This document shows positions 5,849 through 48,876 of a stretch of DNA of 64,000 nucleotides, in pieces. The first letter of the stretch is position 1, and every line of letters begins with the position of its first letter. This DNA is from Escherichia phage RB16: the sequence record NC_014467.1; one strand, 5' to 3'. The notes below the pieces were generated by a model. The model did not search any database and was not told where the DNA came from. It saw nothing but the letters and a program-made list of their open reading frames with translations. A program made the position numbers and the translations under genes.

Positions 5849-6702
5849 TAATATCGGTTCCAAACTTTTTTCGCGCTGTATGGTTTTCCTTTCGACTGGA
5901 AAGCCTGTGTAGGCAACCAAACTGCTTTCGCCCAGTCTTTTGGGGCTATCTCTGCAAGAGGTGATCGCAGGTGCGCAGGTAAGTATGCTTTGATCATTTG
6001 ATCTGCACCGCGCATCCCTTTCACGTTGTTCCAGTTGATTTTCAATCTGGTTTTGTTTGAAAGGCGATCTGTTGATCCGTATCCACGTTTCAAAAGTTCT
6101 TCTAAAAACTCTTGACGGGCTTTAGGTGGCGCATAGTGCAAGTTCAAACCGTACAGAACTAAATTACCCGCTTTAGAACGTCCTGAACCCAGGAAGATGA
6201 TTAGCGGGAACCGATCCCAGTATGGTAGGGTATCTTTGTATTTCGCGTCATACACGAACGTATACAATCGCCCTGTTGCTGGTTTCGCTACCCTGTGCGT
6301 TTTGATGCTGGTTTTGATGAAGTCACCAAACCAATCGGTTGAATCCTTTTGACGTTTCGCAGCAGAAACACCCACTGTAATTTTCCGTAAACTATTTCGG
6401 AAGTCGTTGATGATGTCAACTGTATGTTTTTTGCGATAGTCATTGCGTTTTCGTCGGGCTTCGGTTTCTGCTGTACGTCGCGAGATTTCATCATCAATCT
6501 GCTGTTTATAGCGGTGCATAGACTTTGTGAACGTTGCGTATGCAATCCCGTTTTCGTCCGCGAATTTTTTGGCTGTCATGCCTTTTAATTTTGCGCGTCT
6601 GAATTTAACACCCAGTTCAACCCATTCACCAAGTTTTCGCTTCGGTGGCGGTTTCGGCTTATCTTCTTCTGCGATGATCTCAAACTCAAATATAAAACTC
6701 AT
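5848..6702 (-). CDS. 2: gp2 DNA end protector protein
   Basis: 284 aa, position and size as T4 gp2; basic N-terminus. Confidence 0.7.
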   Translation of the reverse strand: MSFIFEFEIIAEEDKPKPPPKRKLGEWVELGVKFRRAKLKGMTAKKFADENGIAYATFTKSMHRYKQQIDDEISRRTAETEARRKRNDYRKKHTVDIINDFRNSLRKITVGVSAAKRQKDSTDWFGDFIKTSIKTHRVAKPATGRLYTFVYDAKYKDTLPYWDRFPLIIFLGSGRSKAGNLVLYGLNLHYAPPKARQEFLEELLKRGYGSTDRLSNKTRLKINWNNVKGMRGADQMIKAYLPAHLRSPLAEIAPKDWAKAVWLPTQAFQSKGKPYSAKKVWNRY

Positions 6703-7388
6703 AATTCCCTCCGTTTACACTTATCACCATGCCAACGTTTAAACATACCCGGCCTGAAACTATTACCGCAGTATTGGCATTCCATTTTCTCTATATTTGA
6801 AACTGCTTCCCTTATGCGTATCTTTTGTTCTTCTGTTCGGGGTTTCCCCTTTCTAGCATCTGCTGATTTTTTTACTGCATCAGGGGGCATAGTTTTTCCT
6901 GAACATGAGATAGAAATTTTTTGTTTATGTTCTTCTGATAGAGATCTCCCTACCTTAGCGTTTCTCATCTTTTCTATAGACTGTTCGTTGAATAGCCCTG
7001 GTCGAGTTTTACCTTTCAATGGATTGACCCACCCATCTTTCATTTTGCGAGATTTACCTATTTTTGCTTTACTCATTTTCTCTCGCGTTTCGCTGGATGC
7101 TGTTGTGTATGATACCCCACCCTCCCCACCAATTTTTAAATTGTATGTGTGTTCCGATAGCACGAACTCGCGATTGACAAGTTCCTTTTCTTTATCATAC
7201 ATTTCAGAAGGGGTGTCAAACACATACAATATACTTTTTGTGAAGTTGTGTATGCCATATTTGGTTTGTGCTTTCAATAAAAGTTTACCAGACCCCATAT
7301 ACGAATCATTCACATCTGTGGTTGCATGTGCGCCGATATAAATTTTATCGTTGATATTGTTTTTAATCTGATAGACTAAATATTTCAT
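6699..7388 (-). CDS. GIY-YIG homing endonuclease (Seg-like) inserted between genes 2 and 4
   Basis: N-terminal KYLVYQIKNNINDKIYIGAHATT GIY-YIG motif; C-terminal CQYCGNSF zinc finger; start chosen at the Met before the motif, which abuts the gp4 stop (7385-7387) in ATGA form. Confidence 0.8.
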   Translation of the reverse strand: MKYLVYQIKNNINDKIYIGAHATTDVNDSYMGSGKLLLKAQTKYGIHNFTKSILYVFDTPSEMYDKEKELVNREFVLSEHTYNLKIGGEGGVSYTTASSETREKMSKAKIGKSRKMKDGWVNPLKGKTRPGLFNEQSIEKMRNAKVGRSLSEEHKQKISISCSGKTMPPDAVKKSADARKGKPRTEEQKIRIREAVSNIEKMECQYCGNSFRPGMFKRWHGDKCKRREL

Positions 7389-7858
7389 TTCTCGTACCCT
7401 TTCCATCCAAAAACACGTTTGAGGGTGTCTTCGGTTATGATCTTGAACTCCCATCCTTTTGCTTTACATGCAGCATTGGCGGCTTTCCATTTGTCTATAT
7501 TTATGGAGTAAACATAGAGAGCATCAACAAATTTCTTTTTGTTGTGAACGTTGTTGTTCGCTGGCTTAGGTGGGGGCAATGTTTCTTTCATCGGTTTGAC
7601 TTCCCATAGGTAGGTCACACCGTTATCCATCTCAACATAAAAATCCATGAAGTAACGCCGTCTTTTACCGTCTGCGTTGCTGAAATAAGGTATCACAACC
7701 TCTTCACTGTTCCAGCGTTTCACATGCGGATTCCTGTCAAGCCAGTTCATTATATATTTTTCCCAGCTTGACCGATACGTTATCTTTCGAGGATCGCCTT
7801 TATATTTTGTTATGTTCTGGGGCATAAAAGACCCCTTGTACGTCTGTCTTCCAGCCAT
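7385..7858 (-). CDS. 4: gp4 head completion protein
   Basis: 157 aa, position relative to genes 2 and 53. Confidence 0.7.
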   Translation of the reverse strand: MAGRQTYKGSFMPQNITKYKGDPRKITYRSSWEKYIMNWLDRNPHVKRWNSEEVVIPYFSNADGKRRRYFMDFYVEMDNGVTYLWEVKPMKETLPPPKPANNNVHNKKKFVDALYVYSINIDKWKAANAACKAKGWEFKIITEDTLKRVFGWKGYEK

Positions 7859-36614: not shown

Positions 36615-37262
36615 ATGAATGAATCCCAACTCAATGAAAACGGCGATATGCTGCTAATCGAGGAATGGGGTTTACCTTGTGCGGATATTTCCGATTCGAT
36701 TTTAGAATCGGTCGGTGCGTCTAAAGACGGTAAACTTCGGATTGAAGGTATTTTCCTACAGGCTGAAAAAGTAAACCATAATAAACGACTGTACCCGAAA
36801 AAAGTATTAGAAGAAGCAGTAAATGATTATATCAGAACTCAAGTTAATACCCGTCAAGCACTGGGTGAAATGAATCACCCTCCGCGCCCGAATGTGGACC
36901 CGCGAAATGCTTGCATCCTCATTGAAAAAATGTGGTGGAAAGGTAATGACGTTTGGGGCCGTGCGGTTGTTGTCGAAGGTGACAACGCGGATGGTGATAA
37001 ACTTGCGGCGTTAATTCGTGCTGGTTGGGTTCCTGGTGTTTCTTCTCGCGGACTAGGTAAACTTGCCGATTCCGGTAAAGGTTACGGTATCGTACAAGAA
37101 GGGTTTAAATTGGCTGTAGGTGTTGATGTAGTTTGGGGGCCAAGCGCTCCAGATGCTTACGTTAAACCAATAACCGAATCTCAGCAGACGAAACCGCTTG
37201 TTGAGAATATTAGTGCTGATGACGCTTTCAGAAAATTATCTGAACGTTTGAAAGGTCTATAA
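36615..37262 (+). CDS. 21: gp21 prohead core protease
   Basis: 215 aa, order and size, position before scaffold gene. Confidence 0.9.
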   Translation: MNESQLNENGDMLLIEEWGLPCADISDSILESVGASKDGKLRIEGIFLQAEKVNHNKRLYPKKVLEEAVNDYIRTQVNTRQALGEMNHPPRPNVDPRNACILIEKMWWKGNDVWGRAVVVEGDNADGDKLAALIRAGWVPGVSSRGLGKLADSGKGYGIVQEGFKLAVGVDVVWGPSAPDAYVKPITESQQTKPLVENISADDAFRKLSERLKGL

Positions 37263-37265
37263 ATA
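37258..37265 (+). promoter_or_regulatory. T4-type late promoter motif TATAAATA upstream of gp22
   Basis: Exact TATAAATA 27 nt before ATG at 37293. Confidence 0.6.
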
Positions 37266-37292
37266 ATATCATATCAAACAGGAAACTTAGAA

Positions 37293-38084
37293 ATGCTAAA
37301 AGAACAACTGTTGGCAGAAGCCCAGAACCTGGATACTCCAGTTGAGTTAGACAGCATTTTCGAATCAGTTGAACTTTCTGATGAAGTGAAAGCGAATTTC
37401 ACCACTGTATTCGAACAAGCTGTAAAAGCTAACGCTGTAAAACTCGCAGAATCCCATATCAATCAGATCGCGGAACGTTCCGATGAACTGGTTGAAGCCC
37501 AGGTTGCCGAAAAAGCTGGCGCAATCGAAACACAACTGTACGAAGATGCAAATAAATACTTCGACCACATCGCACAAGAATGGCTCTCAGAAAACAAAGA
37601 AGCCGTATCCCGCGATATTAAGGCCGACTTATTCGAATCTCTGGTTGCTGGTATGAAAGAATTGTTCGTTGATCACAACGTAATTATTCCAGAAGCCCAG
37701 GTTGATGTTGTTGCAGAACTCGAAGATGAACTGACCGAAAATCAGCAGGAAGTTAAGCGCCTGTTTGAAGCGAATCAGGCTCAGGCTAAAGAGATCGCCA
37801 ACATGAAACGCGATACAATCGTTTCAGAAAAAACCAAAGATTTAACCGAATCCCAGGTTGAGAAAGTTCAGAACCTGATCGAAGGTTTGGAATATTCCGA
37901 CAAGTTCGAATCCAAACTGACCGCAATTGTCGAAATGGTAGCGACTAAAGCGGAAAAACAGGTTGACGAGAGTACAAATACTCAGACAACCACTAAAGAC
38001 GATTTTGTTCCGGTAAATGAAAATGCTCCGGCAGAGAAATCGAAGATCAATAAATATGTTGAAGCGGCTAAACGCCTTTCCTAA
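37293..38084 (+). CDS. 22: gp22 prohead core scaffold protein
   Basis: 263-aa acidic alpha-helical protein, position before major capsid gene. Confidence 0.85.
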   Translation: MLKEQLLAEAQNLDTPVELDSIFESVELSDEVKANFTTVFEQAVKANAVKLAESHINQIAERSDELVEAQVAEKAGAIETQLYEDANKYFDHIAQEWLSENKEAVSRDIKADLFESLVAGMKELFVDHNVIIPEAQVDVVAELEDELTENQQEVKRLFEANQAQAKEIANMKRDTIVSEKTKDLTESQVEKVQNLIEGLEYSDKFESKLTAIVEMVATKAEKQVDESTNTQTTTKDDFVPVNENAPAEKSKINKYVEAAKRLS

Positions 38085-38105
38085 TCTTTTATAAGGTAAG
38101 AAACA

Positions 38106-39680
38106 ATGTCTAAGAAAAACGAATTGATGGAAAAATGGAACGATCTTCTGGAATCTCAGGAAGGTTTACCGGATATCGCTACCAAATCCAAAAAACAACT
38201 GGTCGCTGCCATTCTGGAAGCACAGGAAAAAGACGCTGAAACCGATCCGGTTTATCGCGACGAAAAAATTGTGGAATCCTTCGGTGGTTTCCTGGCAGAA
38301 GCAGAAATTGCTGGCGATCATAACTATGACCCGACCAACATCGCTTCTGGTAAATCCAGCGGTGCTATCACCAACATCGGTCCTGCTGTAATCGGTATGG
38401 TTCGCCGTGCGATCCCTAACCTGATTGCGTTCGACATTTGCGGTGTTCAGCCTATGACTGGTCCTACTGGTCAGGTGTTCGCTCTCCGTGCTGTCTACGG
38501 TAAAGATCCTCTGGCTGGCGGTACTCCGGCAGATGTTCGTGAAGCATTCCATCCGATGTTTGCCCCGGATACCATGTATTCTGGTGAAGGTGCTCACACT
38601 GCATTCTCGAAAATCACCACTGGTACAGCGATCGCTACTGGCGCTATCGTATACCACATTTTCCAGGAAACTGGTATTGCATACTTCCAGAACGTTACCT
38701 CTGGCAACGTAACTGTAACTGGTGCTGATCCGGCTGCTCTGGATGCTGCTGTAATCGCAGAGAACGAAAAAGGTACTCTGGCTGAAATCTCTGTTGGTAT
38801 GGCTACCAGTGTAGCAGAACTGCAAGAGAACTTCAACGGTTCCAGCTCTAACCCGTGGAACGAAATGGCTTTCCGTATCGACAAACAGGTTATCGAAGCC
38901 CGTAGCCGTCAACTGAAAGCACAGTATTCTGTTGAACTGGCACAGGATCTTCGCGCTGTTCACGGTATGGACGCTGACGCAGAACTGTCTGCAATTCTGG
39001 CAACTGAAATCATGCTGGAAATCAACCGCGAAATCGTTGATCTGATCAACTATACCGCTCAGGTTGGTAAATCTGGTTTCACCCAGACCGTAGGCTCTAA
39101 AGCTGGCTCCTTCGACTTCCAAGATCCGGTAGATATTCGCGGCGCTCGTTGGGCTGGTGAAAGCTACAAGGCTCTGCTGATTCAGATCGACAAAGAAGCG
39201 AACGAAATCGCACGTCAAACAGGCCGTGGTGCTGGTAACTTCATCATCGCTTCCCGTAACGTGGTTTCCGCTCTGGCTCGTATCGACAGCGGCATCACTC
39301 CGGCAAGTCAAGGTCTCCAGAAGACTCTGAACGTTGATACCACGAAAGCAGTATTCGCTGGTGTTCTGGGTGGCACTTACAAAGTGTACATCGACCAGTA
39401 CGCTCGCCAGGATTACTTCACCGTTGGCTTCAAGGGCGACAACGAAATGGATGCTGGTATCTACTACGCGCCATACGTTGCACTGACCCCGCTGCGTGGT
39501 TCTGATCCGAAGAACTTCCAGCCAGTAATGGGCTTCAAAACTCGTTACGGTATCGGTATCAACCCGTTTGCGAACTCTCGCTCTCAGGCTCCGGCAGATC
39601 GTATCACCTCTGGTATGATCAGCAAAGAAATGTGCGGTAAAAACGCATACTTCCGTAAGGTCTGGGTTAAGGGACTTTGA
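38106..39680 (+). CDS. 23: gp23 major capsid protein
   Basis: 524 aa; CGVQPMTGPTGQVFALRAVYGKDP and many other segments match T4 gp23. Confidence 0.97.
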   Translation: MSKKNELMEKWNDLLESQEGLPDIATKSKKQLVAAILEAQEKDAETDPVYRDEKIVESFGGFLAEAEIAGDHNYDPTNIASGKSSGAITNIGPAVIGMVRRAIPNLIAFDICGVQPMTGPTGQVFALRAVYGKDPLAGGTPADVREAFHPMFAPDTMYSGEGAHTAFSKITTGTAIATGAIVYHIFQETGIAYFQNVTSGNVTVTGADPAALDAAVIAENEKGTLAEISVGMATSVAELQENFNGSSSNPWNEMAFRIDKQVIEARSRQLKAQYSVELAQDLRAVHGMDADAELSAILATEIMLEINREIVDLINYTAQVGKSGFTQTVGSKAGSFDFQDPVDIRGARWAGESYKALLIQIDKEANEIARQTGRGAGNFIIASRNVVSALARIDSGITPASQGLQKTLNVDTTKAVFAGVLGGTYKVYIDQYARQDYFTVGFKGDNEMDAGIYYAPYVALTPLRGSDPKNFQPVMGFKTRYGIGINPFANSRSQAPADRITSGMISKEMCGKNAYFRKVWVKGL

Positions 39681-39710
39681 TCCTAAGCTGTTGAAAAACA
39701 ACGACTTTTT

Positions 39711-39736
39711 AAAGGGAACCTTCGGGTTCCCTTTTT
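39711..39736 (+). terminator. rho-independent terminator after gp23
   Basis: AAAGGGAACC-ttcg-GGTTCCCTTTTT. Confidence 0.75.
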
Positions 39737-39741
39737 GTTTA

Positions 39742-39749
39742 TATAAATA
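39742..39749 (+). promoter_or_regulatory. T4-type late promoter motif TATAAATA upstream of the SegD-like gene
   Basis: Exact TATAAATA 24 nt before ATG at 39773. Confidence 0.55.
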
Positions 39750-39772
39750 GTGAAAACATTCGAGGCTATATT

Positions 39773-40411
39773 ATGAAACACATCATTTATAAAATAACAA
39801 ACACCATCAATAACAAAATATATGTTGGTGCTCACTCAACCGAAGATATCAACGATTCATACATGGGTTCCGGTATTGCAATCAAAAAAGCGCAAAAGAA
39901 ATATGGTATGGAACATTTCACAAAAGAAATACTTCATGTATTTGATACCCGTGAAGAAATGTATGAGAAGGAAAGGGAAATAGTTGATATTGAATTCATA
40001 AATCGACCAGATACATATAATGCTGGTATTGGTGGTAAAGGTGCTCCAATGGCGTTGATTGGATGGAGTGATGAACAACGCAAGCTGATTTCCGAAAATA
40101 CTTCGAAAGCTATGCAAACTCCAGAAATGCGCGAACGCCTTTCAAAAATAAAAACAGGGAAGAAGCAATCAGAAGAATCCAACAGGAAGCGTTCAGAGAC
40201 TATCAAAGCTATGTACAAGGGTTCTGCATTCGACAGAACCGGATCTAAGCTCACAGACGCGCACAAGGCCAAAATAAGCCGTTCTGTGTCGATAGATGGA
40301 GTTGTTTACGCAAGCGGTTCCGATGCTTCTAAAGCGTTGGGGCTTTCTCGATCTGGCCTTGATTACCGTTTAAAGAGTGACAAATTTCCTGAATGGAAAT
40401 TCGTTGCATAA
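39773..40411 (+). CDS. segD: GIY-YIG homing endonuclease (SegD-like) between genes 23 and 24
   Basis: N-terminal HIIYKITNTINNKIYVGAHST GIY-YIG motif; same position as T4 segD; clear paralogue of the endonuclease at 6699-7388. Confidence 0.85.
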   Translation: MKHIIYKITNTINNKIYVGAHSTEDINDSYMGSGIAIKKAQKKYGMEHFTKEILHVFDTREEMYEKEREIVDIEFINRPDTYNAGIGGKGAPMALIGWSDEQRKLISENTSKAMQTPEMRERLSKIKTGKKQSEESNRKRSETIKAMYKGSAFDRTGSKLTDAHKAKISRSVSIDGVVYASGSDASKALGLSRSGLDYRLKSDKFPEWKFVA

Positions 40412-40449
40412 ATAAACAATATACTCCCTCTAATTCAGGAACCAAAGAA

Positions 40450-41748
40450 ATGAGTGATAAACACTACACAATTCACAAGTTGATGCGTCAGTCTGCGCTT
40501 CCGTCTGGTAAACGCGAAAAGGTTATCAACGAAGCAACAGGCACGACCGATATCAACGTACAGAACACGCGCCCAGAACTGGTTTCTTTGACTCGCGCTG
40601 TGAACAACCTGATCTATCATGAACTGGTTGCTGTACAAGAAACGGATTTACCAGTAGCTACCCTTTTCGGTGTTCGTTATCGCAACCCTAATGGGGACAT
40701 GACTTTCTCCAGCGCTGCAACCTATTCAGGCCGCATATCTGGACGTACAGACATCGACGATATCGATCTGGCTAAGGCATACGTCAAAGGCGATTTATTC
40801 AAGCACGATGTCACTGACGTTGTGTATGAGGTCATCGAACCTGTAAAGCTAAACGCGCTGGATACTGATAAAGACACCGCAATCATGAAAGCTGTGTTCC
40901 AAAGTAAAATTCGTTTGGTTAGCGAAGCCGCAGACACTTCAAAATATGAAACCAGTGAAGATATCGCATCAACCTCTTTCCAGATGGATCGTTGGAACAT
41001 TCCGGTTCGTTCACGTAAGTTTAAAACTGAAATGACCGTGGAATTGATGCAGGATCTGGAAGCAAACCAGTTTGAAGCCGATGGGGTAATTGAAGATATC
41101 CTGGGTACGGTTGCAAGCGAAGAAGTCAACAAAGATATTATTCAGACGCTGATCACCGTTTCCAAACGATATAACGTTGATGGTGTAGTTGTCGATGGTA
41201 TTTTTGACGGTACAACCACATACACTGCGAAGGATGCTCCAGCATTGGGCCGCATACTCTATCAATTAGCGTGCGAAATGGGCCAAGAAATGAATAGAAC
41301 GACTTCATTTGATGCAACCTACGTCCTCGCTAGTGCTCGCGTTGTAGGCGTTCTGGCTGCGTCTGGTTGGATGACCGAAACCGACGAACAACACCCGCTG
41401 GCAACTGGTAAACTTCAAAACGGTTATTATGTCTATACCGACACGAATACACCGTTTGATTATCTGCTTACCGGATGCAAATACGATCTGGGTGATATGG
41501 ATCACGTAGGTTCTCTGTTCTTCACTCCGTACACCGAAGCGGATGATGCAGGTTCAATCAAGGTATCCGTAGATCCTGCATCACTGCAACCGAAAGTTGC
41601 TATTCTGATGCGTTACGGTTTATCTGTGAACCCATACACAACGGAATCCGACTCTGAACGGTTGACCAAAGGCGATGACTGGTCGAATCTGGCTGGTAAA
41701 TCCAAACTCAGTCAAATCGTAGGTATTAAATTACCTAAGCTGGGTTAA
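40450..41748 (+). CDS. 24: gp24 head vertex protein
   Basis: About 432 aa; start at MSDKHYTIHKL after SD (track ORF begins at 40393 inside the endonuclease gene); 7/8 late-promoter-like CATAAATA at 40407. Confidence 0.9.
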   Translation: MSDKHYTIHKLMRQSALPSGKREKVINEATGTTDINVQNTRPELVSLTRAVNNLIYHELVAVQETDLPVATLFGVRYRNPNGDMTFSSAATYSGRISGRTDIDDIDLAKAYVKGDLFKHDVTDVVYEVIEPVKLNALDTDKDTAIMKAVFQSKIRLVSEAADTSKYETSEDIASTSFQMDRWNIPVRSRKFKTEMTVELMQDLEANQFEADGVIEDILGTVASEEVNKDIIQTLITVSKRYNVDGVVVDGIFDGTTTYTAKDAPALGRILYQLACEMGQEMNRTTSFDATYVLASARVVGVLAASGWMTETDEQHPLATGKLQNGYYVYTDTNTPFDYLLTGCKYDLGDMDHVGSLFFTPYTEADDAGSIKVSVDPASLQPKVAILMRYGLSVNPYTTESDSERLTKGDDWSNLAGKSKLSQIVGIKLPKLG

Positions 41749-41797
41749 TCAAGTTTTGAGAAGACCATTATAATAACAAAGATCAAGAAGGTCAAAC

Positions 41798-41966
41798 GAG
41801 CGAAGCGAGTTTTCACGAACGAAGTGAGTGATGGGTACTACTAACTACATAATTATATTTTTATATTTTATATATAGAGAAAAATGTAGTTTTTGGTATG
41901 TTTTTTAACCAGATGTAAACTAACATTCATTCGCTTCGCTCATTCATGTACTCACTTCGTTCGTAG
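41798..41966 (+). repeat. repeat cassette copy B (same element as 4790-4960)
   Basis: Arms GAGCGAAGCGA...ACGAACGAAGTGAGTG and TCGCTTCGCTC...ACTCACTTCGTTCGT flank the shared AT-rich core. Confidence 0.8.
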
Positions 41967-41968
41967 AT

Positions 41969-41996
41969 TTGACTTCTTGATCATGATGGTTATAAT
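41969..41996 (+). promoter_or_regulatory. strong sigma70-like promoter TTGACT-16-TATAAT upstream of uvsY
   Basis: Consensus-like hexamers, 24 nt before uvsY ATG. Confidence 0.6.
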
Positions 41997-42019
41997 ACTA
42001 CTTTGTTTTGAGGTGATTC

Positions 42020-42442
42020 ATGGCTGAACTAAAACTTGAAGATTTACAGGCTGAACTCGAAAAGGATATGTTGATCGACCCTCTGAAACTACAGAGTGAA
42101 TCAGCAGACATTCCTAAGATTTGGTCTAAGTGGCTTCGATATCATTCGAATGCTAAGAAAAAACTGATCCAGCTACAGGCCAGGAAAGAAGCAGAAGTGA
42201 AAGAACGTCTTCTGTATTACACTGGACGGCATGAGACTGAAATGACTGATGTCATTTACACAGGTTCAGGTGAAATTAAGATTGCGATCAATGGCGATCC
42301 GAAAATTGTTGAGGTTAACAAACTGATTCAGTATTTCGAACTGATTGCAGAATTCACCAGTAAGGCGCTGGACATTGTTAAGAACAAAGGATATTCTATC
42401 AAAAATATGTTGGAAATCCGAAAACTTGAGAGTGGTGCATAA
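42020..42442 (+). CDS. uvsY: UvsY recombination mediator protein
   Basis: 140 aa; LEDLQAELEKDMLIDPLKLQSE...WSKWLRYHSNAKKKL...ERLLYYTGR pattern matches T4 UvsY as I recall it. Confidence 0.85.
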   Translation: MAELKLEDLQAELEKDMLIDPLKLQSESADIPKIWSKWLRYHSNAKKKLIQLQARKEAEVKERLLYYTGRHETEMTDVIYTGSGEIKIAINGDPKIVEVNKLIQYFELIAEFTSKALDIVKNKGYSIKNMLEIRKLESGA

Positions 42443-42443
42443 A

Positions 42444-42623
42444 ATGTCAGAACAAGAAGACTGCAAATGTGTGGTTTGTAAAAATCCGATTCCTACTGCA
42501 ACTGGGTTTGTAACTGAATCTGGTCGTGTGTGTGGTGTGATTTGTGCTCAGTATTTGATTGAGCGTAACAAAACCGGATTGAATGAAGCCGACGATCTGA
42601 ACGAAGTTCAAATGTTGTTGTAG
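42444..42623 (+). CDS. small Cys-rich protein (59 aa), uvsY.-2-like by position
   Basis: MSEQEDCKCVVCKNP...CGVICAQ; start abuts uvsY stop; track ORF 42345..42623 extends into uvsY. Confidence 0.5.
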   Translation: MSEQEDCKCVVCKNPIPTATGFVTESGRVCGVICAQYLIERNKTGLNEADDLNEVQMLL

Positions 42624-42639
42624 GTGGAATATGAGCAAA

Positions 42640-42920
42640 GTTGATTCGGGATGTTTCGAAGACGAACACCCAGATTTTTAGGGTAGGTAAAAAGTTGCCA
42701 TAGGCAAGACAAATCAAACTATAGGACAAACTTACGGATAGCCTAACGCCGAGGTGAGAACGTTAACTTTTGTCCGAGGCGGGTTTGAGTTCGAAACGCA
42801 AGGATCGGACGCTCTAAATACTGGTGTACCCCTTGTGGGGCTTGGCTGGCTGATTAATCAGCTTACGCAGTTTAGAATAGCGGTGTCGTCACCGCGTTAA
42901 AAATCAACTATGCTTCAAAA
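42640..42920 (+). ncRNA. candidate structured non-coding region (function unknown)
   Basis: About 280 bp without plausible ORF on the plus strand, several hairpins and a perfect 14-bp palindrome GCTGATTAATCAGC; ends at a strong terminator. Confidence 0.25.
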
Positions 42921-42924
42921 TTAA

Positions 42925-42958
42925 AGCCCCTTCCTTTCGGTTGGGGCTTCTTTTTTAG
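42925..42958. terminator. bidirectional rho-independent terminator, copy 2 of the hairpin at 5818-5848
   Basis: AAAGCCCCTTCCTTTCGGTTGGGGCTT followed by T-run; between convergent plus-strand region and uvsW.1. Confidence 0.75.
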
Positions 42959-43185
42959 AACTTCTCTTCTTCTCCGGTTTCAAGTTCGGCTTTGAGTTCT
43001 TCACGCCGTCCCTTGATCGCGTCACGCATTGAAATGTCATCGGATGCTGCAACTTCAACTTCCTTGACCCGCGTATTGTAATATTTTTCCAACTCTTTCA
43101 AACCGTCCAATGTACGGCACGAAGCAACTTTATTCATGAAATCATCAATTGCGGCTTCGTTAACGAATTCAGTAAAACTTTTCAT
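42955..43185 (-). CDS. uvsW.1: UvsW.1-like small protein
   Basis: 76 aa, directly downstream of uvsW on the same strand (T4 UvsW.1 is about this size). Confidence 0.6.
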   Translation of the reverse strand: MKSFTEFVNEAAIDDFMNKVASCRTLDGLKELEKYYNTRVKEVEVAASDDISMRDAIKGRREELKAELETGEEEKF

Positions 43186-43194
43186 CTTAACCTC

Positions 43195-44694
43195 TTAAAT
43201 TTCTACCTGTTTGATCACGTAGTCGAATCGTTCTTCATTGTAGATCCGCACACGTTCCATAGCATGTTTCATGCCGTAGTTAGTTGCACTATATTTATTT
43301 TTGGCTGTCTTCGACTTCGCCAGCGTTGCCAGGTTATCGACGATATCCCATACAGTTGCAAGCGCTTTCGAACCATGCTTACGCAACACGCGCCCGATCG
43401 ACTGCTTAACAACAACGGCAGATTTGCAAGGGTGTGCAAAAATGATGTGATGCAGGTTCTTGATTGAAATACCTGTACTCAGTACCCCGATCGAACCGAT
43501 TACAATCAAACCCTTTGTTGATTCCGCAATCTTTTTCATTTCGTTGCGGTCGTCAATGTCCGTATCGCCGTTGATCAATACAACGTTGTCATAAACCTTG
43601 CTTAACTTCTCGTACAGCCATTTTCCGTGTTCTTTATACCGGAACATCACGAATGTGTTTTCGTTCTTCTCACGGGCTAATTTAAGCGCTAATTTTAGAA
43701 TCCATGCGTTGCGCCGTGTATGGCTTGTAACGTATTTGATTTCAGTCTGGTAGTCTGCACCCTTCAATTTCTTGATCTCTTCTTCTTTGTACCGAAGGAA
43801 GATTGTGTTAATTTTCAGGTTGGTGACTTGTCCATCATCCATCAAACGACGCGTATCAACTGGTTTAAAGACTTTACCGAACGCACCGATGTATTGCATC
43901 ATGTTCGTTTTCCCTTCTTTCAGGGAACCGGATAAACCCAGTTTGAAAATGCACTGATCCATTGTGTCGATAATCTTTTTGATGCTCAACCCTGTTGATA
44001 GGTGGCATTCATCAACCATCAGGCACATGAACTGCTGGAACCACTCAGCAGGCATTTTAACCGCTGATTGCCAGGTTGAAACATAGATTAGCGCGTTGCT
44101 GTTCTTAGCAGTACCGGAACGAATACCCAACATTGCCGATTTCGGAAACAGTCGATAGTTTGCGATGTCCTCAATCATTTGGTCAACCAGCGCCGTAGTT
44201 GGAACGATAATCAGCACTTTTCCGCTGTAATGTTCCAGACACCAACGGGAGATAAGACCCTGAATTAGAGATTTACCCGCTGACGTTGGCAGGTTCAGAA
44301 CTCCTCGACGGTTTTTGATACCGTGGAATACGGATTCGCGCTGATACCAGTAAGGATCGATCTGTTTGTCACCGTCATAAACTGGATGCTCGTTAACCCA
44401 CTTGTCAAAATCTTCTTGCGTGATATCCTCTGTCTCGTGGATCTTCGGATCTACCCAGATTGAATAACCGCGTGATTCTGCGAATTTTGTTACCAGATAG
44501 GCTAACCCATACGGGAGTTTTCCGTTGTAGTCCATCAGGTAAATGTACCCGTTCCATCCACCATATTTGTATTTGGCTTGATACTGATAGCCTGGAGGCT
44601 GGAATGAAAAATAGTCACGAAGTTCATAGACAATGTTTGCTTCTGCCTGAATCTGTACGTGGCTTGTGTTTAAAAATTTGACTTCAATATCCAC
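43195..44694 (-). CDS. uvsW: UvsW RNA-DNA and DNA-DNA helicase
   Basis: 499 aa; Walker A LPTSAGKSL, DECH box MVDECH, SF2 helicase C-terminal motifs. Confidence 0.85.
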   Translation of the reverse strand: MDIEVKFLNTSHVQIQAEANIVYELRDYFSFQPPGYQYQAKYKYGGWNGYIYLMDYNGKLPYGLAYLVTKFAESRGYSIWVDPKIHETEDITQEDFDKWVNEHPVYDGDKQIDPYWYQRESVFHGIKNRRGVLNLPTSAGKSLIQGLISRWCLEHYSGKVLIIVPTTALVDQMIEDIANYRLFPKSAMLGIRSGTAKNSNALIYVSTWQSAVKMPAEWFQQFMCLMVDECHLSTGLSIKKIIDTMDQCIFKLGLSGSLKEGKTNMMQYIGAFGKVFKPVDTRRLMDDGQVTNLKINTIFLRYKEEEIKKLKGADYQTEIKYVTSHTRRNAWILKLALKLAREKNENTFVMFRYKEHGKWLYEKLSKVYDNVVLINGDTDIDDRNEMKKIAESTKGLIVIGSIGVLSTGISIKNLHHIIFAHPCKSAVVVKQSIGRVLRKHGSKALATVWDIVDNLATLAKSKTAKNKYSATNYGMKHAMERVRIYNEERFDYVIKQVEI

Positions 44695-44765
44695 TATGAT
44701 TACCCTATGTACAAAGTATATAGGTATTTATTGCCTAAATATTGAATAAACACTGGAGATAGACA

Positions 44766-45422
44766 ATGAAAATTGATTACGAATTGGTAGAAGGGTTCCG
44801 TGCTCTGCCTACTAAAGAACAGAAAGGCGCACTGGCTGACTACGCTCAAAGCACCTTCGAAGTAAAACTGAACAAACAAAAATCATTCGATAACATGCTG
44901 GCTGATCTGGAAGCTGCTGTACCAGCGGAAGAAAAACCGGAACTGTTGATTGATTCCCCAGAACCAGAAATAGTTTCGTACACTGGTAGCTCTATGATGG
45001 ATGAACCTGTTGTTAACGCTCCGAACATTCCTGATGTGGTTGTCGATGTGTCGCAGGACTTTATGAATTACGTCAAAGAAGTTGCGCCGGAAGTGGCTGA
45101 CCAGATTCAATTAGTACCTGATGTTGTAGAAGCTCCTGTAACCGCTTCTGACGAGTCCAAAGCTGATACGGCATGGTTGGATGGTTTTAGTCCTACCATC
45201 GTTCTGATGGGGCGTAGCGCTCGTTCTAACGGCTATTATACGTGTCCCTGGTGGATCTATGATTGGATTAAGAAAAATCCAGATTGGTACAAAGATCCTG
45301 ACCAATGTCCACACTACAGCGCACGGGATACCCTGAAATCGCTGGTGTACTACATCAAGCGTGATGGTCAAGTTACTGTGCGTGAAACTCGCAACAGCAG
45401 TTTCGACACCTTCAAGTTTTAG
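44766..45422 (+). CDS. hypothetical protein (218 aa) with C-terminal CPWWIYDWIKKNPDWY motif
   Basis: ORF track; shares the PWWIYD-x-I...DW motif with the ORF at 46477. Confidence 0.55.
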   Translation: MKIDYELVEGFRALPTKEQKGALADYAQSTFEVKLNKQKSFDNMLADLEAAVPAEEKPELLIDSPEPEIVSYTGSSMMDEPVVNAPNIPDVVVDVSQDFMNYVKEVAPEVADQIQLVPDVVEAPVTASDESKADTAWLDGFSPTIVLMGRSARSNGYYTCPWWIYDWIKKNPDWYKDPDQCPHYSARDTLKSLVYYIKRDGQVTVRETRNSSFDTFKF

Positions 45423-45442
45423 CACTTTTTGCTAAAATCTGG

Positions 45443-45471
45443 TTGACTCATACCCCGCTTTAAAGTATATT
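45443..45471 (+). promoter_or_regulatory. sigma70-like promoter candidate (TTGACT-17-TATATT)
   Basis: Hexamer match upstream of the gene at 45522. Confidence 0.35.
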
Positions 45472-45521
45472 TGTACTCGAAGGCGGGGGAAAGGCTCTCG
45501 CAGTGAAAGAAGGAAAGCAAA

Positions 45522-45839
45522 ATGAAAAACGAAATGATGAAAAATGCTTATTATCCGGTTCTGTTTGTTTGGGGCGGGGAAAAAGTTAAAACTATCGTTA
45601 ATTCACAAGCTCCGTATTACACTGTTGGTGAAGCACTTCGTCATGCCGCCGAAGCTGATTATCCGGTATCATTTGAACCTGGTTATGCTCGTTGGAATGG
45701 TTCTAAATGGGTTGCTGATAGCTGGGACAACTACGAAGAATCAAGAATGGAACATGATCCTGATTATGTTTCTCGCCAGATGGAAGCGCACATGATTGCA
45801 GACCGTCGCCTCGATAACGAAGCTCGCGGGTTCTGGTAA
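45522..45839 (+). CDS. hypothetical protein (105 aa)
   Basis: ORF track; AGGA SD; terminator downstream. Confidence 0.5.
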   Translation: MKNEMMKNAYYPVLFVWGGEKVKTIVNSQAPYYTVGEALRHAAEADYPVSFEPGYARWNGSKWVADSWDNYEESRMEHDPDYVSRQMEAHMIADRRLDNEARGFW

Positions 45840-45844
45840 AATTT

Positions 45845-45868
45845 AAGGGGGCGAAAGCCTCCTTTTTT
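45845..45868 (+). terminator. rho-independent terminator (GNRA-loop hairpin + T6)
   Basis: AAGGGGGC-gaaa-GCCTCCTTTTTT. Confidence 0.55.
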
Positions 45869-45879
45869 ATAGGTGAAGA

Positions 45880-46449
45880 ATGAACAAATTAAACCATGAA
45901 TGTCTGAAAGATTTGTCAGATGGTAAAGAAATCGAGAACGTTATATTCCTCGATATTGACGGCGTGTTAAATAATATGCGCTCTATGAAATTCGGTGAAC
46001 ATATGGACATCGAATGTGCGCGACATCTACGCCGGATCGTCAACCATGCAAATTGTGATATCGTTGTTTCTTCAACGTGGCGCATGGGGAACACGACACA
46101 CACCCTACGCGAAATCCTGTACCCCTGGGGATTGTATCGCGTTATAGGCCGAACCTGTAGCAACATGGTTGGTAATCGTGTGCGTGGTGATGAAATAAAG
46201 GCGTGGATCGATACGTTCGGATGTAAGAACTATATGATCCTTGATGATGATTGTGATATGTTGCCAGAACAAAAAGATCACTTCGTCAGAACAGATCCTG
46301 AAATCGGGCTTACCGAAGAACAATCAACCTTTGCGATCCGCAATATATTTGGAGTAACAACCCCGTTTTGTCCTGAATGCAACGGCTACGGGCGCGTGAA
46401 CCAATACGATAAATGCGGTAGCTGTAACGGTAAAATATTGCGTCTATAA
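45880..46449 (+). CDS. HAD-like phosphatase-fold protein with C-terminal zinc ribbon
   Basis: VIFLDIDGVLNN (HAD motif I DxDGV) near N-terminus; C-terminal CPECNGYG...CGSCNGK. Confidence 0.55.
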   Translation: MNKLNHECLKDLSDGKEIENVIFLDIDGVLNNMRSMKFGEHMDIECARHLRRIVNHANCDIVVSSTWRMGNTTHTLREILYPWGLYRVIGRTCSNMVGNRVRGDEIKAWIDTFGCKNYMILDDDCDMLPEQKDHFVRTDPEIGLTEEQSTFAIRNIFGVTTPFCPECNGYGRVNQYDKCGSCNGKILRL

Positions 46450-46452
46450 ATA
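46445..46452 (+). promoter_or_regulatory. T4-type late promoter motif TATAAATA upstream of the Ig-like domain gene
   Basis: Exact TATAAATA 25 nt before ATG at 46477. Confidence 0.5.
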
Positions 46453-46476
46453 CAGAAAAACTAAGAGGTTTCAATA

Positions 46477-46980
46477 ATGGCTACTGAAAAATGGACTACG
46501 GTTCACCCTATCCCGTGGCGTAACACCAGCTTTACCTATCTTCCGTGGTGGATCTATGATATCATTGTTGCTGCTAATACGGCAGGTGGAGATTGGCGTG
46601 ATTACGCAGAAGAAAAATATGCGAAAGAATTCGACACGCTGAAACAAGCATATATCGACTATACCGATGTTGATTTCATCGAATCTCGCAACGGCTACCT
46701 GTACAAACTCAGTGATTTTACTCCGGCTGATCCGGTTGTTACTATCACCCCGAAAACTGCCCCTGCTGATTTTAAAGTAGGCGATCCTGACCTTGCTGCA
46801 ACCGATCTGTTTACTATCGATCCGAGCGGTACGGCTATGACTCTGACTGTGGATTCCTCTGGTCATGCGTCGATCGTTGGCGGTAAACTCCACGCTGTAA
46901 GCGCTGGTGATGTTGTTGTAACTGCGACCTCCGGTTCTGTTACTGCAAACCTGACTGTAAATGTTAAAGTTGCTCCATAA
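46477..46980 (+). CDS. protein with N-terminal PWWIYD motif and C-terminal bacterial Ig-like (Big_2-type) domain; possible virion decoration protein
   Basis: C-terminal DPSGTAMTLTVDSSGHASIVGGKLHAVSAGDVVVTATSGSVTANLTVNVKV typical of Ig-like beta-sandwich; late promoter motif upstream. Confidence 0.6.
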   Translation: MATEKWTTVHPIPWRNTSFTYLPWWIYDIIVAANTAGGDWRDYAEEKYAKEFDTLKQAYIDYTDVDFIESRNGYLYKLSDFTPADPVVTITPKTAPADFKVGDPDLAATDLFTIDPSGTAMTLTVDSSGHASIVGGKLHAVSAGDVVVTATSGSVTANLTVNVKVAP

Positions 46981-46995
46981 CTAAGAAGGTAAAAC

Positions 46996-47496
46996 ATGCT
47001 TCTATTCGAATTCAATGATGTATTCTCGAAGTTTAGTGATGCAATTCAGGCAAAATTCGGCAAACGTCCCGAAAACATGACAGAAACAGAATACAATACT
47101 GCTGTTTCGTCCCTGGTTCGTACAGATTTCTATGAAAAGCTGGCGATCGAGGTTTTGGGCTGGGATATGATGAAATGGGGTATGACTTATCGCGATCGCG
47201 AAGTCGGTTTTATTCTCGTCAACGAGGTTAAAAGCCCGTTGTGGGTGAATAACCAAAAAATTGCATACATGGATAAAGTGTGTGCGGAAATGGGTATTGT
47301 ACGTCTGGATTTCTGGATGTGTAAAGATCTGAATGAACTGAAAGGCCATGCTTATCGATGCCCTCTGATTTCTCGCAACGAGAAACATCGTCAAGCATGG
47401 GATAGCGCTGGCAAGTATCGCAGTGTATATCTGAATGATGACATGAACATCACTATCCAGGATGTGAACCGCGCCTTTGCGGATTACACACCATAA
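46996..47496 (+). CDS. hypothetical protein (166 aa)
   Basis: ORF track; terminator downstream. Confidence 0.5.
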   Translation: MLLFEFNDVFSKFSDAIQAKFGKRPENMTETEYNTAVSSLVRTDFYEKLAIEVLGWDMMKWGMTYRDREVGFILVNEVKSPLWVNNQKIAYMDKVCAEMGIVRLDFWMCKDLNELKGHAYRCPLISRNEKHRQAWDSAGKYRSVYLNDDMNITIQDVNRAFADYTP

Positions 47497-47499
47497 ACA

Positions 47500-47532
47500 A
47501 AAAAGGGAACCGCAATGGTTCCCTTTCTTTTT
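47500..47532. terminator. bidirectional rho-independent terminator between convergent genes
   Basis: AAAGGGAACC-gcaa-TGGTTCCCTTTCTTTTT. Confidence 0.7.
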
Positions 47533-47974
47533 ACAGCTTTCTAACTTCTTTCAACGCTTCTTCTTTGCTACCAACGAAGAGGATCGCTTTTCCTCCCGCT
47601 TTCCTGAAAGGTAATACTGCTTTCGCTCTGTCATCGAACAGTACACCCTGACTTGCATAGGCTGCTTTTTCGCCGCTGCTTTTGGTGTAGTGGAATTCAG
47701 GCAGATACCCAAACAGTTTAACAAGCGCTTTACGTTTTTGTTCTGCAACTTTTTCGGAATTGTATTTACCGACACTGGTCAAGATCGCAACCTCGCCTAA
47801 TGTTCTCATATGACAGAACAGCGCAACACCCTCTTCAATCGGTTTTAAATTTTCGTAGAAGTCGGTTTTAGATATTGCCTCTTTTGCCTTTTTGAGTTCA
47901 TCCTCTGGCATTCTTGCCGGATCACCATACATCGGTATGAAAGAACCTTCCCAATCGAACAGTACACCATCCAT
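47531..47974 (-). CDS. HAD-superfamily 5'(3')-deoxyribonucleotidase-like protein; N-terminus apparently truncated by a frameshift
   Basis: Begins MDGVLFDWEG; in-frame upstream codons read N-F-F-F-D before the ATG (47975-47989); upstream ATG at 47993 is in another frame across a T6 run. Confidence 0.55.
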   Translation of the reverse strand: MDGVLFDWEGSFIPMYGDPARMPEDELKKAKEAISKTDFYENLKPIEEGVALFCHMRTLGEVAILTSVGKYNSEKVAEQKRKALVKLFGYLPEFHYTKSSGEKAAYASQGVLFDDRAKAVLPFRKAGGKAILFVGSKEEALKEVRKL

Positions 47975-48042
47975 ATCAAAGAAAAAATTTCATATCAATT
48001 CCTCGCTTTGTGTGTGCATCATATTCATATATGTTCTCATTG

Positions 48043-48876
48043 TCAACCCCATGTGTCTGTTTTAGGTGCGTATGCTGCAACTTTAGCCACTAATTCCTTA
48101 TCAAGCTGATCGATAGATTTCTGTGCTTTGCCTTTTGCCTTAACTTTGATGTAGTTAGACTTGACAACGAACATACCGCCTTTGTCAGATTTCTTGATTT
48201 CGCTATCGATACCAACTTTGTTAAAGCTGATCCAGATATCACCATCCATGTATTGTTTCAGTGAATCACCCATGTTCAGGATCTTAGCCATAGTAAGCGC
48301 TGCTCCTTCGTGGGTATCCATAAGGATCTCTTTAGGAACCACACGGTCACGTTTCAGGTTCTGCTGCATAGCAATATGAACATCGTTCATTACCCAAACG
48401 ATATGGATGTTTTCTTTATGATATCCCAGCGTTTCAACGTCACGGGCAATGCTTGCCAGCTTGCTCATGCTTTTTAGGGTAACGTCGAAAATCAGGTTTG
48501 GTTTGCGGTCTTCTGGTGCTGCTGCAATACCAGCATAAACACGCGCCTGGTTTTTGTTGGATACGTTGAAAACGTCTGCGATCACATGATGCAGGGTTGC
48601 CACGTTATCCGGGTTTTTCAAGTTCATGGTTTTAACATCATGACCAGTTTTAGCTTTGATTTCTGCCGCCAGTTTGGTGCTACCCATTACCAGCTTTTTC
48701 AGTGCGTCAACGTCCAGTGTGATTCCTTCGATACCTAACAGTTTTTCGAGGGTAAAACCTTTACCGGAACCCGCACCGCCAGCCAGGATCACAACCTGAC
48801 CAAATTTAGGATATGCCTTGCCGCCAAACGTAATCAACGCTTCGTCAAGGGATACAAAGTCTTTGAATGATTTCAT
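48043..48876 (-). CDS. P-loop-like nucleotide-binding protein (277 aa), possible kinase
   Basis: Glycine-rich VVILAGGAGSGKGF near N-terminus (atypical Walker A, no S/T after Lys). Confidence 0.5.
   Translation of the reverse strand: MKSFKDFVSLDEALITFGGKAYPKFGQVVILAGGAGSGKGFTLEKLLGIEGITLDVDALKKLVMGSTKLAAEIKAKTGHDVKTMNLKNPDNVATLHHVIADVFNVSNKNQARVYAGIAAAPEDRKPNLIFDVTLKSMSKLASIARDVETLGYHKENIHIVWVMNDVHIAMQQNLKRDRVVPKEILMDTHEGAALTMAKILNMGDSLKQYMDGDIWISFNKVGIDSEIKKSDKGGMFVVKSNYIKVKAKGKAQKSIDQLDKELVAKVAAYAPKTDTWG

Follow-up and report, generated by a model that had tools for sequence, protein, structure and literature searches.

Organization of the hoc and inh locus

The window analyzed here is a 64,000-nucleotide (nt) stretch of the Escherichia phage RB16 genome (sequence record NC_014467.1), and two of its genes, hoc and inh, are considered together with a domain that their products have in common. 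The hoc open reading frame (ORF) extends from 46477 to 46980, starts with ATG and encodes a 167-amino-acid (aa) protein with an isoelectric point (pI) of 4.55. It lies on the + strand, as do all features of hoc, inh and gp23 described below, and a sequence-only reading of this DNA had delimited it correctly. By homology, this ORF is the hoc gene of a T4-like phage of the RB43/RB16 type, which encodes the RB43-type head outer capsid (decoration) protein, an identity already known from sister genomes. The product matches phrog_11091 ('Hoc-like head decoration') over its full length (E=1e-112). The DNA from 44000 to 48000 is 97–98% identical to that of Buttiauxella phage GuL6, Citrobacter phage IME-CF2 and RB43 (Pseudotevenvirus), and orthologous ORFs are annotated as Hoc (capsid decoration protein) and Inh in RB43, GuL6, IME-CF2, Miller and others. 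The genes for gp21, gp22, gp23, gp24, uvsY and uvsW, located at 36615 to 44694, form the T4 head-gene region around hoc. The hoc gene of the RB43 reference record (180,500 bp; L005, 4001 to 4504) differs from the window copy at 7 of 504 nt and carries a TAT-to-TAG amber at codon 62, because of which the RB43 Hoc is annotated as 61 aa; the window copy is intact.

An exact TATAAATA was confirmed at 46445 to 46452, 24 nt 5´ of the hoc ATG. This motif is the late-promoter consensus of T4-type phages, and a late-promoter function is predicted for it before hoc from the established knowledge of T4 late promoters. Late expression of hoc, which had been suggested from the sequence, is probable. A Shine–Dalgarno sequence, AAGAGG (46463 to 46468), was read 8 nt 5´ of the ATG at 46477. 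The window contains nine copies of TATAAATA against 2.6 expected, a count reached in none of 100 shuffles, and this richness fits a T4-type phage. Apart from hoc, no ORF in 44640 to 46996, inh included, was found to be preceded by TATAAATA with at most one mismatch.

The inh ORF (44766 to 45422) encodes a 218-aa product (pI 4.45) that matches phrog_1051 ('minor head protein inhibitor of protease', E=1.8e-69) and, judged by its homologs, is Inh, the minor head protein and inhibitor of the gp21 prohead protease. Among 302 Inh homologs, those listed carry both PF26097 (Phage_Inh_N) and PF26098 (Phage_Inh_C), and the precomputed Pfam assignments give the same two domains for homologs at 78–95% identity. 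Both models are newer than the local Pfam-A copy, so Inh has no match there. The inhibition of gp21 and the status of a minor capsid component are putative for RB16 Inh and are taken from annotation.

Inh comprises three parts. The N-terminal helical domain (Phage_Inh_N, aa 1–52; 44766 to 44921) is modeled by AlphaFold2 (AF2) as three helices with a block-mean predicted local distance difference test (pLDDT) score of 86–90, and the alignment shows it to be conserved between T4-type and RB43-type Inh. An acidic, variable linker (aa 53–137; 44922 to 45176) follows, which is predicted to be disordered (pLDDT <50 at aa 55–95 and 113–130) and varies in length in the alignment. The C-terminal domain (Phage_Inh_C, aa 138–218; 45177 to 45419) is highly conserved among Inh proteins. 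Two short motifs lie before this domain. L-(L/I)-(I/F)-D-(S/A)-P, which reads LLIDSP in RB16, is kept in T4-type and RB43-type Inh despite its variable, acidic and disordered surroundings, and (I/V)-x-E directly precedes the C-terminal domain (IIESE in T4, VVEAP in the window). Both may resemble gp21 cleavage or pseudo-substrate sites.

An N-terminal capsid-binding domain in Hoc

The combined use of phmmer, AF2 and Foldseek located a capsid-binding domain at the N terminus of RB16 Hoc (aa 1–85, core aa 8–77; 46477 to 46731). Residues 8–76 align with aa 293–362 of T4 Hoc (phmmer E=9.9e-10), which lie in its capsid-binding domain (aa 281–376); the structure of this T4 domain on the gp23* hexamer has been published (PMC10385173; PDB 8t1x). 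The AF2 model of the 167-aa protein has a pLDDT of 90.2; within the binding domain, the block means are 63 for aa 1–10 and 87–94 thereafter. The topology of the N-terminal domain is β-β-helix-helix-β-β, which would give a four-stranded sheet with a small helical bundle. The top Foldseek match is 8t1x_X (E=1.5e-5, template-modeling (TM) score 0.68, root-mean-square deviation 2.3 Å, 34% identity); the structures compared here and below are AF2 predictions.

The residues through which T4 Hoc contacts the capsid are retained. H295, R300, W309, W310, D313 and E355–G359 of T4 Hoc are all kept in the window protein, as H10, R15, W24, W25, D28 and E69–G73, respectively. PWWIYD (aa 23–28; 46543 to 46560) corresponds to G308-W309-W310-V-M-D313 of T4 Hoc, and the ESRNG loop (aa 69–73; 46681 to 46695) is identical to the T4 pentapeptide E355–G359. 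In T4, W309 and W310 contact gp23* and D313 pairs with R357, while the E355–G359 loop lies at the capsomer center, touching all six gp23* subunits, and its mutations affect binding (PMC10385173). Because RB16 Hoc aligns with the T4 domain and keeps these contact residues, PWWIYD is assigned to the capsid-binding domain, where it opens helix 1. The module that the sequence-only reading had been unable to recognize is, by homology to T4, the Hoc capsid-binding domain. The predicted docking loop for Hoc on the major capsid protein gp23 (aa 330–348 of ORF 38106-39680; 39093 to 39149) corresponds to T4 gp23 G326–R344. It is the same as in T4 at 17 of 19 residues, including D336 and R344, both of which contact Hoc in T4 (PMC10385173).

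These similarities make it highly probable that RB16 Hoc uses its N-terminal domain to dock at the centers of expanded gp23* hexamers, where the sheet, the two Trp residues at the start of helix 1 and the ESRNG loop would enter the center of the hexamer. From the homology to T4 Hoc and the conservation of the docking loop, we infer that the 167-aa protein is associated with the virion. Of the two sites of decoration proposed from the sequence, capsid or tail, homology to the T4 Hoc capsid-binding domain points to the capsid.

A C-terminal Ig-like domain and a reversed domain order

The remainder of Hoc (aa 88–165; 46738 to 46971) is all-β in the AF2 model, with block-mean pLDDT values of 84–97. 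Its Foldseek matches include Big_2-CBM56 (7quz; 31% identity, E=2e-3), LigA/LigB, the C-terminal domain of lambda gpV and the N4 capsid decoration protein. A search of the local Pfam-A copy gave no sequence match for Hoc at E≤1, Big_2 (PF02368) included. The C-terminal immunoglobulin (Ig)-like domain that had been proposed for this protein is thus borne out by structure only, and because the likeness is structural, without a Pfam sequence match, the domain is referred to here as Big_2-like. With high confidence, the models suggest that Hoc displays an acidic Big_2-like domain (pI 4.55), which would point outward as an adhesion or dispersal device.

Big_2-like Ig domains are also found on tail tube proteins, and two of these, lambda gpV and T5 pb6, are among the structural matches, which would suit a 167-aa protein that sits on the tail or another part of the virion, or that is a non-structural Ig-domain protein. 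However, the protein has specifically the Hoc capsid-binding domain as its anchor and retains every gp23-contact residue of T4 Hoc, conservation extends to the docking loop on gp23, and hoc lies beside inh in a head-gene neighborhood. Any such location or role is very improbable, and tail decoration was rejected on the same three grounds.

As a predicted capsid protein, RB16 Hoc has a domain order, anchor then Ig, that is the reverse of the Ig-Ig-Ig-anchor order of T4 Hoc. In the usual T4 layout the Ig domains come before a C-terminal binding domain; the Ig domain of RB16 Hoc is instead C-terminal to the binding domain. The protein is nevertheless filed as Hoc because the anchoring domain defines the family. 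Across 46 related viral loci, the binding domain occupies the C terminus of 38 proteins and the N terminus of 11, and it stands alone in 5, a group that includes the amber-shortened RB43 hoc. The forms with an N-terminal anchor constitute one clade, beginning MAT(E/D)KWTTVHPIPWRNTSF, with 55–93% identity over the aligned part, and their cargo is either a GDSL lipase or Ig domains, one or two in number. The same MAT(E/D)KWTTVHPIPWRNTSF sequence opens the 91-aa proteins of three loci (L010–L012), which consist of the binding domain alone. A member of this kind is published, the 511-aa Hoc-like protein of PG7, which has an N-terminal anchor and a GDSL lipase domain (PMC10385173). The diversity of the domain was taken from viral contigs, as no more than six short fragments were retrieved when the 85-aa Hoc domain was used in a word-indexed search.

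Tandem Hoc paralogs were observed in many T4-like phages (L016, 2648-4492; L010, 3457-4276; L019, 448-4291; L033, 3155-5145). In one such pair, a 445-aa protein with the binding domain at its end is directly followed by a 165-aa protein that begins with the binding domain; other pairs consist of a 177-aa protein and then a 91-aa protein with the binding domain only, or of an 855-aa and then a 413-aa protein. Junctions of this type could be the origin of the reversed architecture.

The hoc gene itself is ordinary, in that it is annotated in sister genomes and the structure of its anchor is published. The RB43-type Hoc is, however, a naturally occurring 'reversed' Hoc, in which the anchor precedes the cargo. 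T4 display depends on Hoc fusions, and those made at the C terminus of T4 Hoc bind poorly; an anchor that naturally accepts cargo at its C-terminal end is thus a useful design template.

Homology between the C-terminal domain of Inh and the Hoc capsid-binding domain

The presence of PWWIYD in both ORFs, which the sequence-only reading had pointed out, holds for Hoc at the positions given above and for Inh at aa 161–166 (45246 to 45263), where the motif aligns with W309-W310...D313 of T4 Hoc. The hexapeptide as such was dropped as evidence, because 16 hexapeptides are common to the 74 non-overlapping ORFs of the window. The homology is carried by comparisons over the domain. BLASTP between the two window proteins gave 15/43 identities (E=9e-4). 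When 24 Hoc domains were compared with 13 Inh domains by hhalign, the match covered 63 columns with a probability of 96.5% and P=8e-10; the score of 53.9 compares with 11.3 ± 2.7 (maximum 20.3) in 100 column-shuffled controls and 9.1 in a reversed control. The profile search that had been named beforehand as the refuting test therefore yielded a significant similarity, above all shuffles, and the motif marks a real homologous module in two different proteins, as had been proposed.

Searches with other profiles lead to the same pair of families. The Hoc profile phrog_1149 matches Inh aa 152–210 (E=5.8e-6), a two-sequence Hoc hidden Markov model (HMM) matches RB43-type Inh at about 5e-6, and the top PDB sequence match of Inh is T4 Hoc (E=0.05; Inh aa 152–211 against 299–359). 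An HMM of the Inh C-terminal domain (Inh-C), run against 2,557 ORFs, placed 43 Inh proteins first, and the next 28 matches were all Hoc capsid-binding domains. Bridging proteins also exist, which carry the Inh N-terminal domain together with a Hoc-like GYWIIDEI motif. The aligned positions include the most constant residues of Inh. The ETRNS loop (aa 207–211; 45384 to 45398) aligns with the ESRNG loop of Hoc, and its E, R, N and S do not vary among the 13 aligned Inh sequences; the second Trp of the motif is also invariant and the first is either Trp or Tyr. In 40 of the 46 related loci, inh is found no more than 4 kb from hoc, mostly immediately upstream and on the same strand, and in T4 the two genes are adjacent, beside uvsW.

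The profile comparisons show that the Inh C-terminal domain is homologous to the Hoc capsid-binding domain, though diverged from it. According to the models, it has the same fold as its Hoc counterpart, and this relationship explains why Inh shares PWWIYD. A recent gene conversion between inh and hoc was also considered: the DNA encoding the motif is identical at 17 of 18 nt in the two genes, the flanks are unrelated, and PWWIY is the consensus in T4 Inh as well. We put the probability of the reading as a whole, that is, a Hoc with an N-terminal binding domain and an Ig domain and an Inh whose C-terminal domain is homologous to that binding domain, at about 0.85.

Several observations weigh against this reading. 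For Hoc and Inh of phage RB16, no experiment or virion proteomics was found. Hoc lacks the Pfam match mentioned above. C-terminal fusions to T4 Hoc weaken binding 500-fold, and a C-terminal Ig domain in RB16 Hoc would therefore need a different exit path. At the level of single sequences, the Inh-C profile run against the PDB scores T4 Hoc at E=0.7, level with antibody VH false positives, and BLASTP detects no similarity between T4 Inh and T4 Hoc (E=1.3); the HMM-to-sequence scores across the families are marginal and would not be convincing by themselves, and together with this T4 result they probably explain why T4 does not readily reveal the link. A search of 1.84 billion proteins yielded one clear Hoc below 1e-3 (P0221, E=3.8e-4), among PD40-repeat false positives. 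Lastly, Inh is without the first-strand contact residues Y293 and H295 of Hoc, and equivalents of R300 and D313 are kept in RB43-type Inh and not in T4-type Inh. Because Y293/H295 in Inh and R300/D313 in the T4 type are not conserved, binding of Inh to the same gp23 site is not assured.

Some of these points, namely the Inh-C HMM scoring T4 Hoc no better than VH frameworks and the T4 BLASTP result, as well as the 16 hexapeptides common among 74 ORFs, would also suit a likeness of PWWIYD that arose by chance or convergence of two Trp-rich segments in unrelated proteins. We regard this explanation as already refuted by the hhalign comparison and its shuffled controls and assign it next to no probability. 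As a caution for motif searches, antibody VH frameworks (GYTFTSYWIxWVKQRPG) and PD40/TolB β-propeller repeats were recurrent false positives of the Inh-C HMM.

The homology of Inh and Hoc appears to be unreported, while the hoc gene, its anchor and the N-terminal anchor in PG7 were already known. No Pfam match is recorded for T4 Hoc or for the 167-aa protein, which is why the databases do not connect the two families. Full-text literature searches gave no statement of an Inh–Hoc relationship, with a prior mention in key older papers being possible; the 2023 paper on the Hoc structure (PMC10385173) does not mention the domain link, and Inh is unmentioned in two reviews of the T4 head (2010 and 2023). 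According to an earlier report, the capsid-binding fold of Hoc lacks structural relatives. The comparison of models and profiles shows such a relative in Inh, a neglected T4 head protein.

Possible roles of the Inh C-terminal domain

The domain link suggests that Inh may anchor to the gp23 lattice. Inh would use its copy of the domain for this purpose, and the C-terminal domain would act as a lattice anchor that places the N-terminal domain and the linker on the shell, a role to which we give an even chance. Under this proposal, Inh would become a capsid component because its C-terminal domain anchors it to gp23. The homology thus provides a concrete and cheap-to-test hypothesis for the incorporation of Inh into heads and for its site of action.

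A more specific, and distinctly more tentative, proposal is that one capsomer-docking module underlies both Inh and Hoc, which would be paralogs. The copy in Inh would be adapted to the prohead gp23 lattice, or to the same site at the hexamer center before Hoc binds there, and would tether the protease-inhibiting N-terminal domain and linker to the shell. If true, this would explain the description of Inh as a 'minor capsid protein' and a local restraint of gp21 activity, and hexamer-center anchors would emerge as a small, interchangeable family that could serve capsid display in either orientation. Unexpanded hexamers cannot accommodate Hoc (PMC10385173). Since a protease inhibitor should act in the prohead, Inh, if it binds gp23, must do so in a modified way.

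The same misfit is among the points that favor a re-purposed domain, in which the Inh C-terminal domain, being homologous, would bind the gp21 protease (a pentamer) or a scaffold component and would itself be the inhibitory module; protease inhibition has to take place in the prohead before its expansion. Annotation makes Inh a gp21 inhibitor, the window includes the gp21 gene (36615 to 37262), and the absence of the first-strand contacts of Hoc from Inh, and of the R300 and D313 equivalents from T4-type Inh, would agree with a different partner. However, the most strictly kept residues of Inh, the second Trp and E-x-R-N, are those that form the gp23-touching loop and the helix start in Hoc, and genome annotations describe Inh as a minor capsid protein. 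Such a change of partner is the principal alternative to a lattice anchor and is possible, at a probability well short of even. Anchoring of Inh to the gp23 lattice is the role preferred here.

Neighboring genes

In the RB43 group, two ORFs lie between inh and hoc (45443-46449 in the window), whereas the two genes are adjacent in T4. The first encodes a 105-aa protein (45522-45839; phrog_7518, function not assigned) and the second (45880-46449) a HAD_SAK_2 protein of 189 aa, the tail of which is a zinc finger of the DnaJ type (CxxCxGxG). The same interval holds a sigma-70-like promoter (45443-45471) and a terminator-like hairpin (45845-45864). Downstream of the hoc cluster, the 277-aa ORF 48043-48876 on the – strand has only a faint Zeta_toxin Pfam match recorded in sister genomes (L049, L050). 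The ORF 39773-40411 (+), between gp23 and gp24, resembles a GIY-YIG homing endonuclease, and T4 has the GIY-YIG endonuclease segD at this place. This ORF and ORF 6699-7454 (–) have the octapeptide NDSYMGSG in common.

Comparison with known systems

RB16 Hoc resembles T4 Hoc (highly immunogenic outer capsid protein; PDB 8t1x, 5vf3; Fokine et al. 2023, PMC10385173) in its homologous binding domain, which has the same predicted fold and the same gp23-contact residues. Both proteins are acidic (pI 4.55 in RB16, 4.74 in T4), carry Ig-like display domains and are encoded near inh. They differ in that the binding domain is N-terminal in RB16 and C-terminal in T4, and in that RB16 Hoc has one Ig domain, Big_2-like by structure, compared with three in T4. 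The C-terminal tail of T4 Hoc (aa 363–376) is absent from RB16 Hoc. In addition, two unrelated ORFs part RB16 hoc from inh, and RB16 hoc has its own predicted late promoter.

The Hoc-like proteins with an N-terminal anchor (the 511-aa protein of PG7 and relatives of 91, 165 and 246 aa) belong to the same binding-domain clade as RB16 Hoc and differ in their cargo. RB16 Hoc carries one Big_2-like Ig domain, the 246-aa CfP1-type protein two, the 91-aa protein none and the 511-aa protein a GDSL lipase. Unlike RB16 hoc, the genes for the 511-aa GDSL lipase proteins are located elsewhere in the genome, away from inh.

A similar arrangement is found in T5 pb10, for which PMC5292684 describes an N-terminal capsid-binding domain at the centers of the major-capsid-protein hexamers and a C-terminal Ig-like domain displayed outward. 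No homology to RB16 Hoc is indicated, pb10 being absent from the top 50 structural matches, and the resemblance is one of architecture only.

RB16 Inh is 41% identical to T4 Inh and has the same three-part layout, with a helical N-terminal domain, an acidic disordered linker and a conserved C-terminal domain, as well as the same place beside uvsW. In contrast to T4 Inh, the RB43-type protein retains Arg and Asp at the positions that correspond to R300 and D313 of Hoc, and it is for this reason that the likeness to Hoc is visible by pairwise comparison in RB16 (E=9e-4) and not in T4 (E=1.3).
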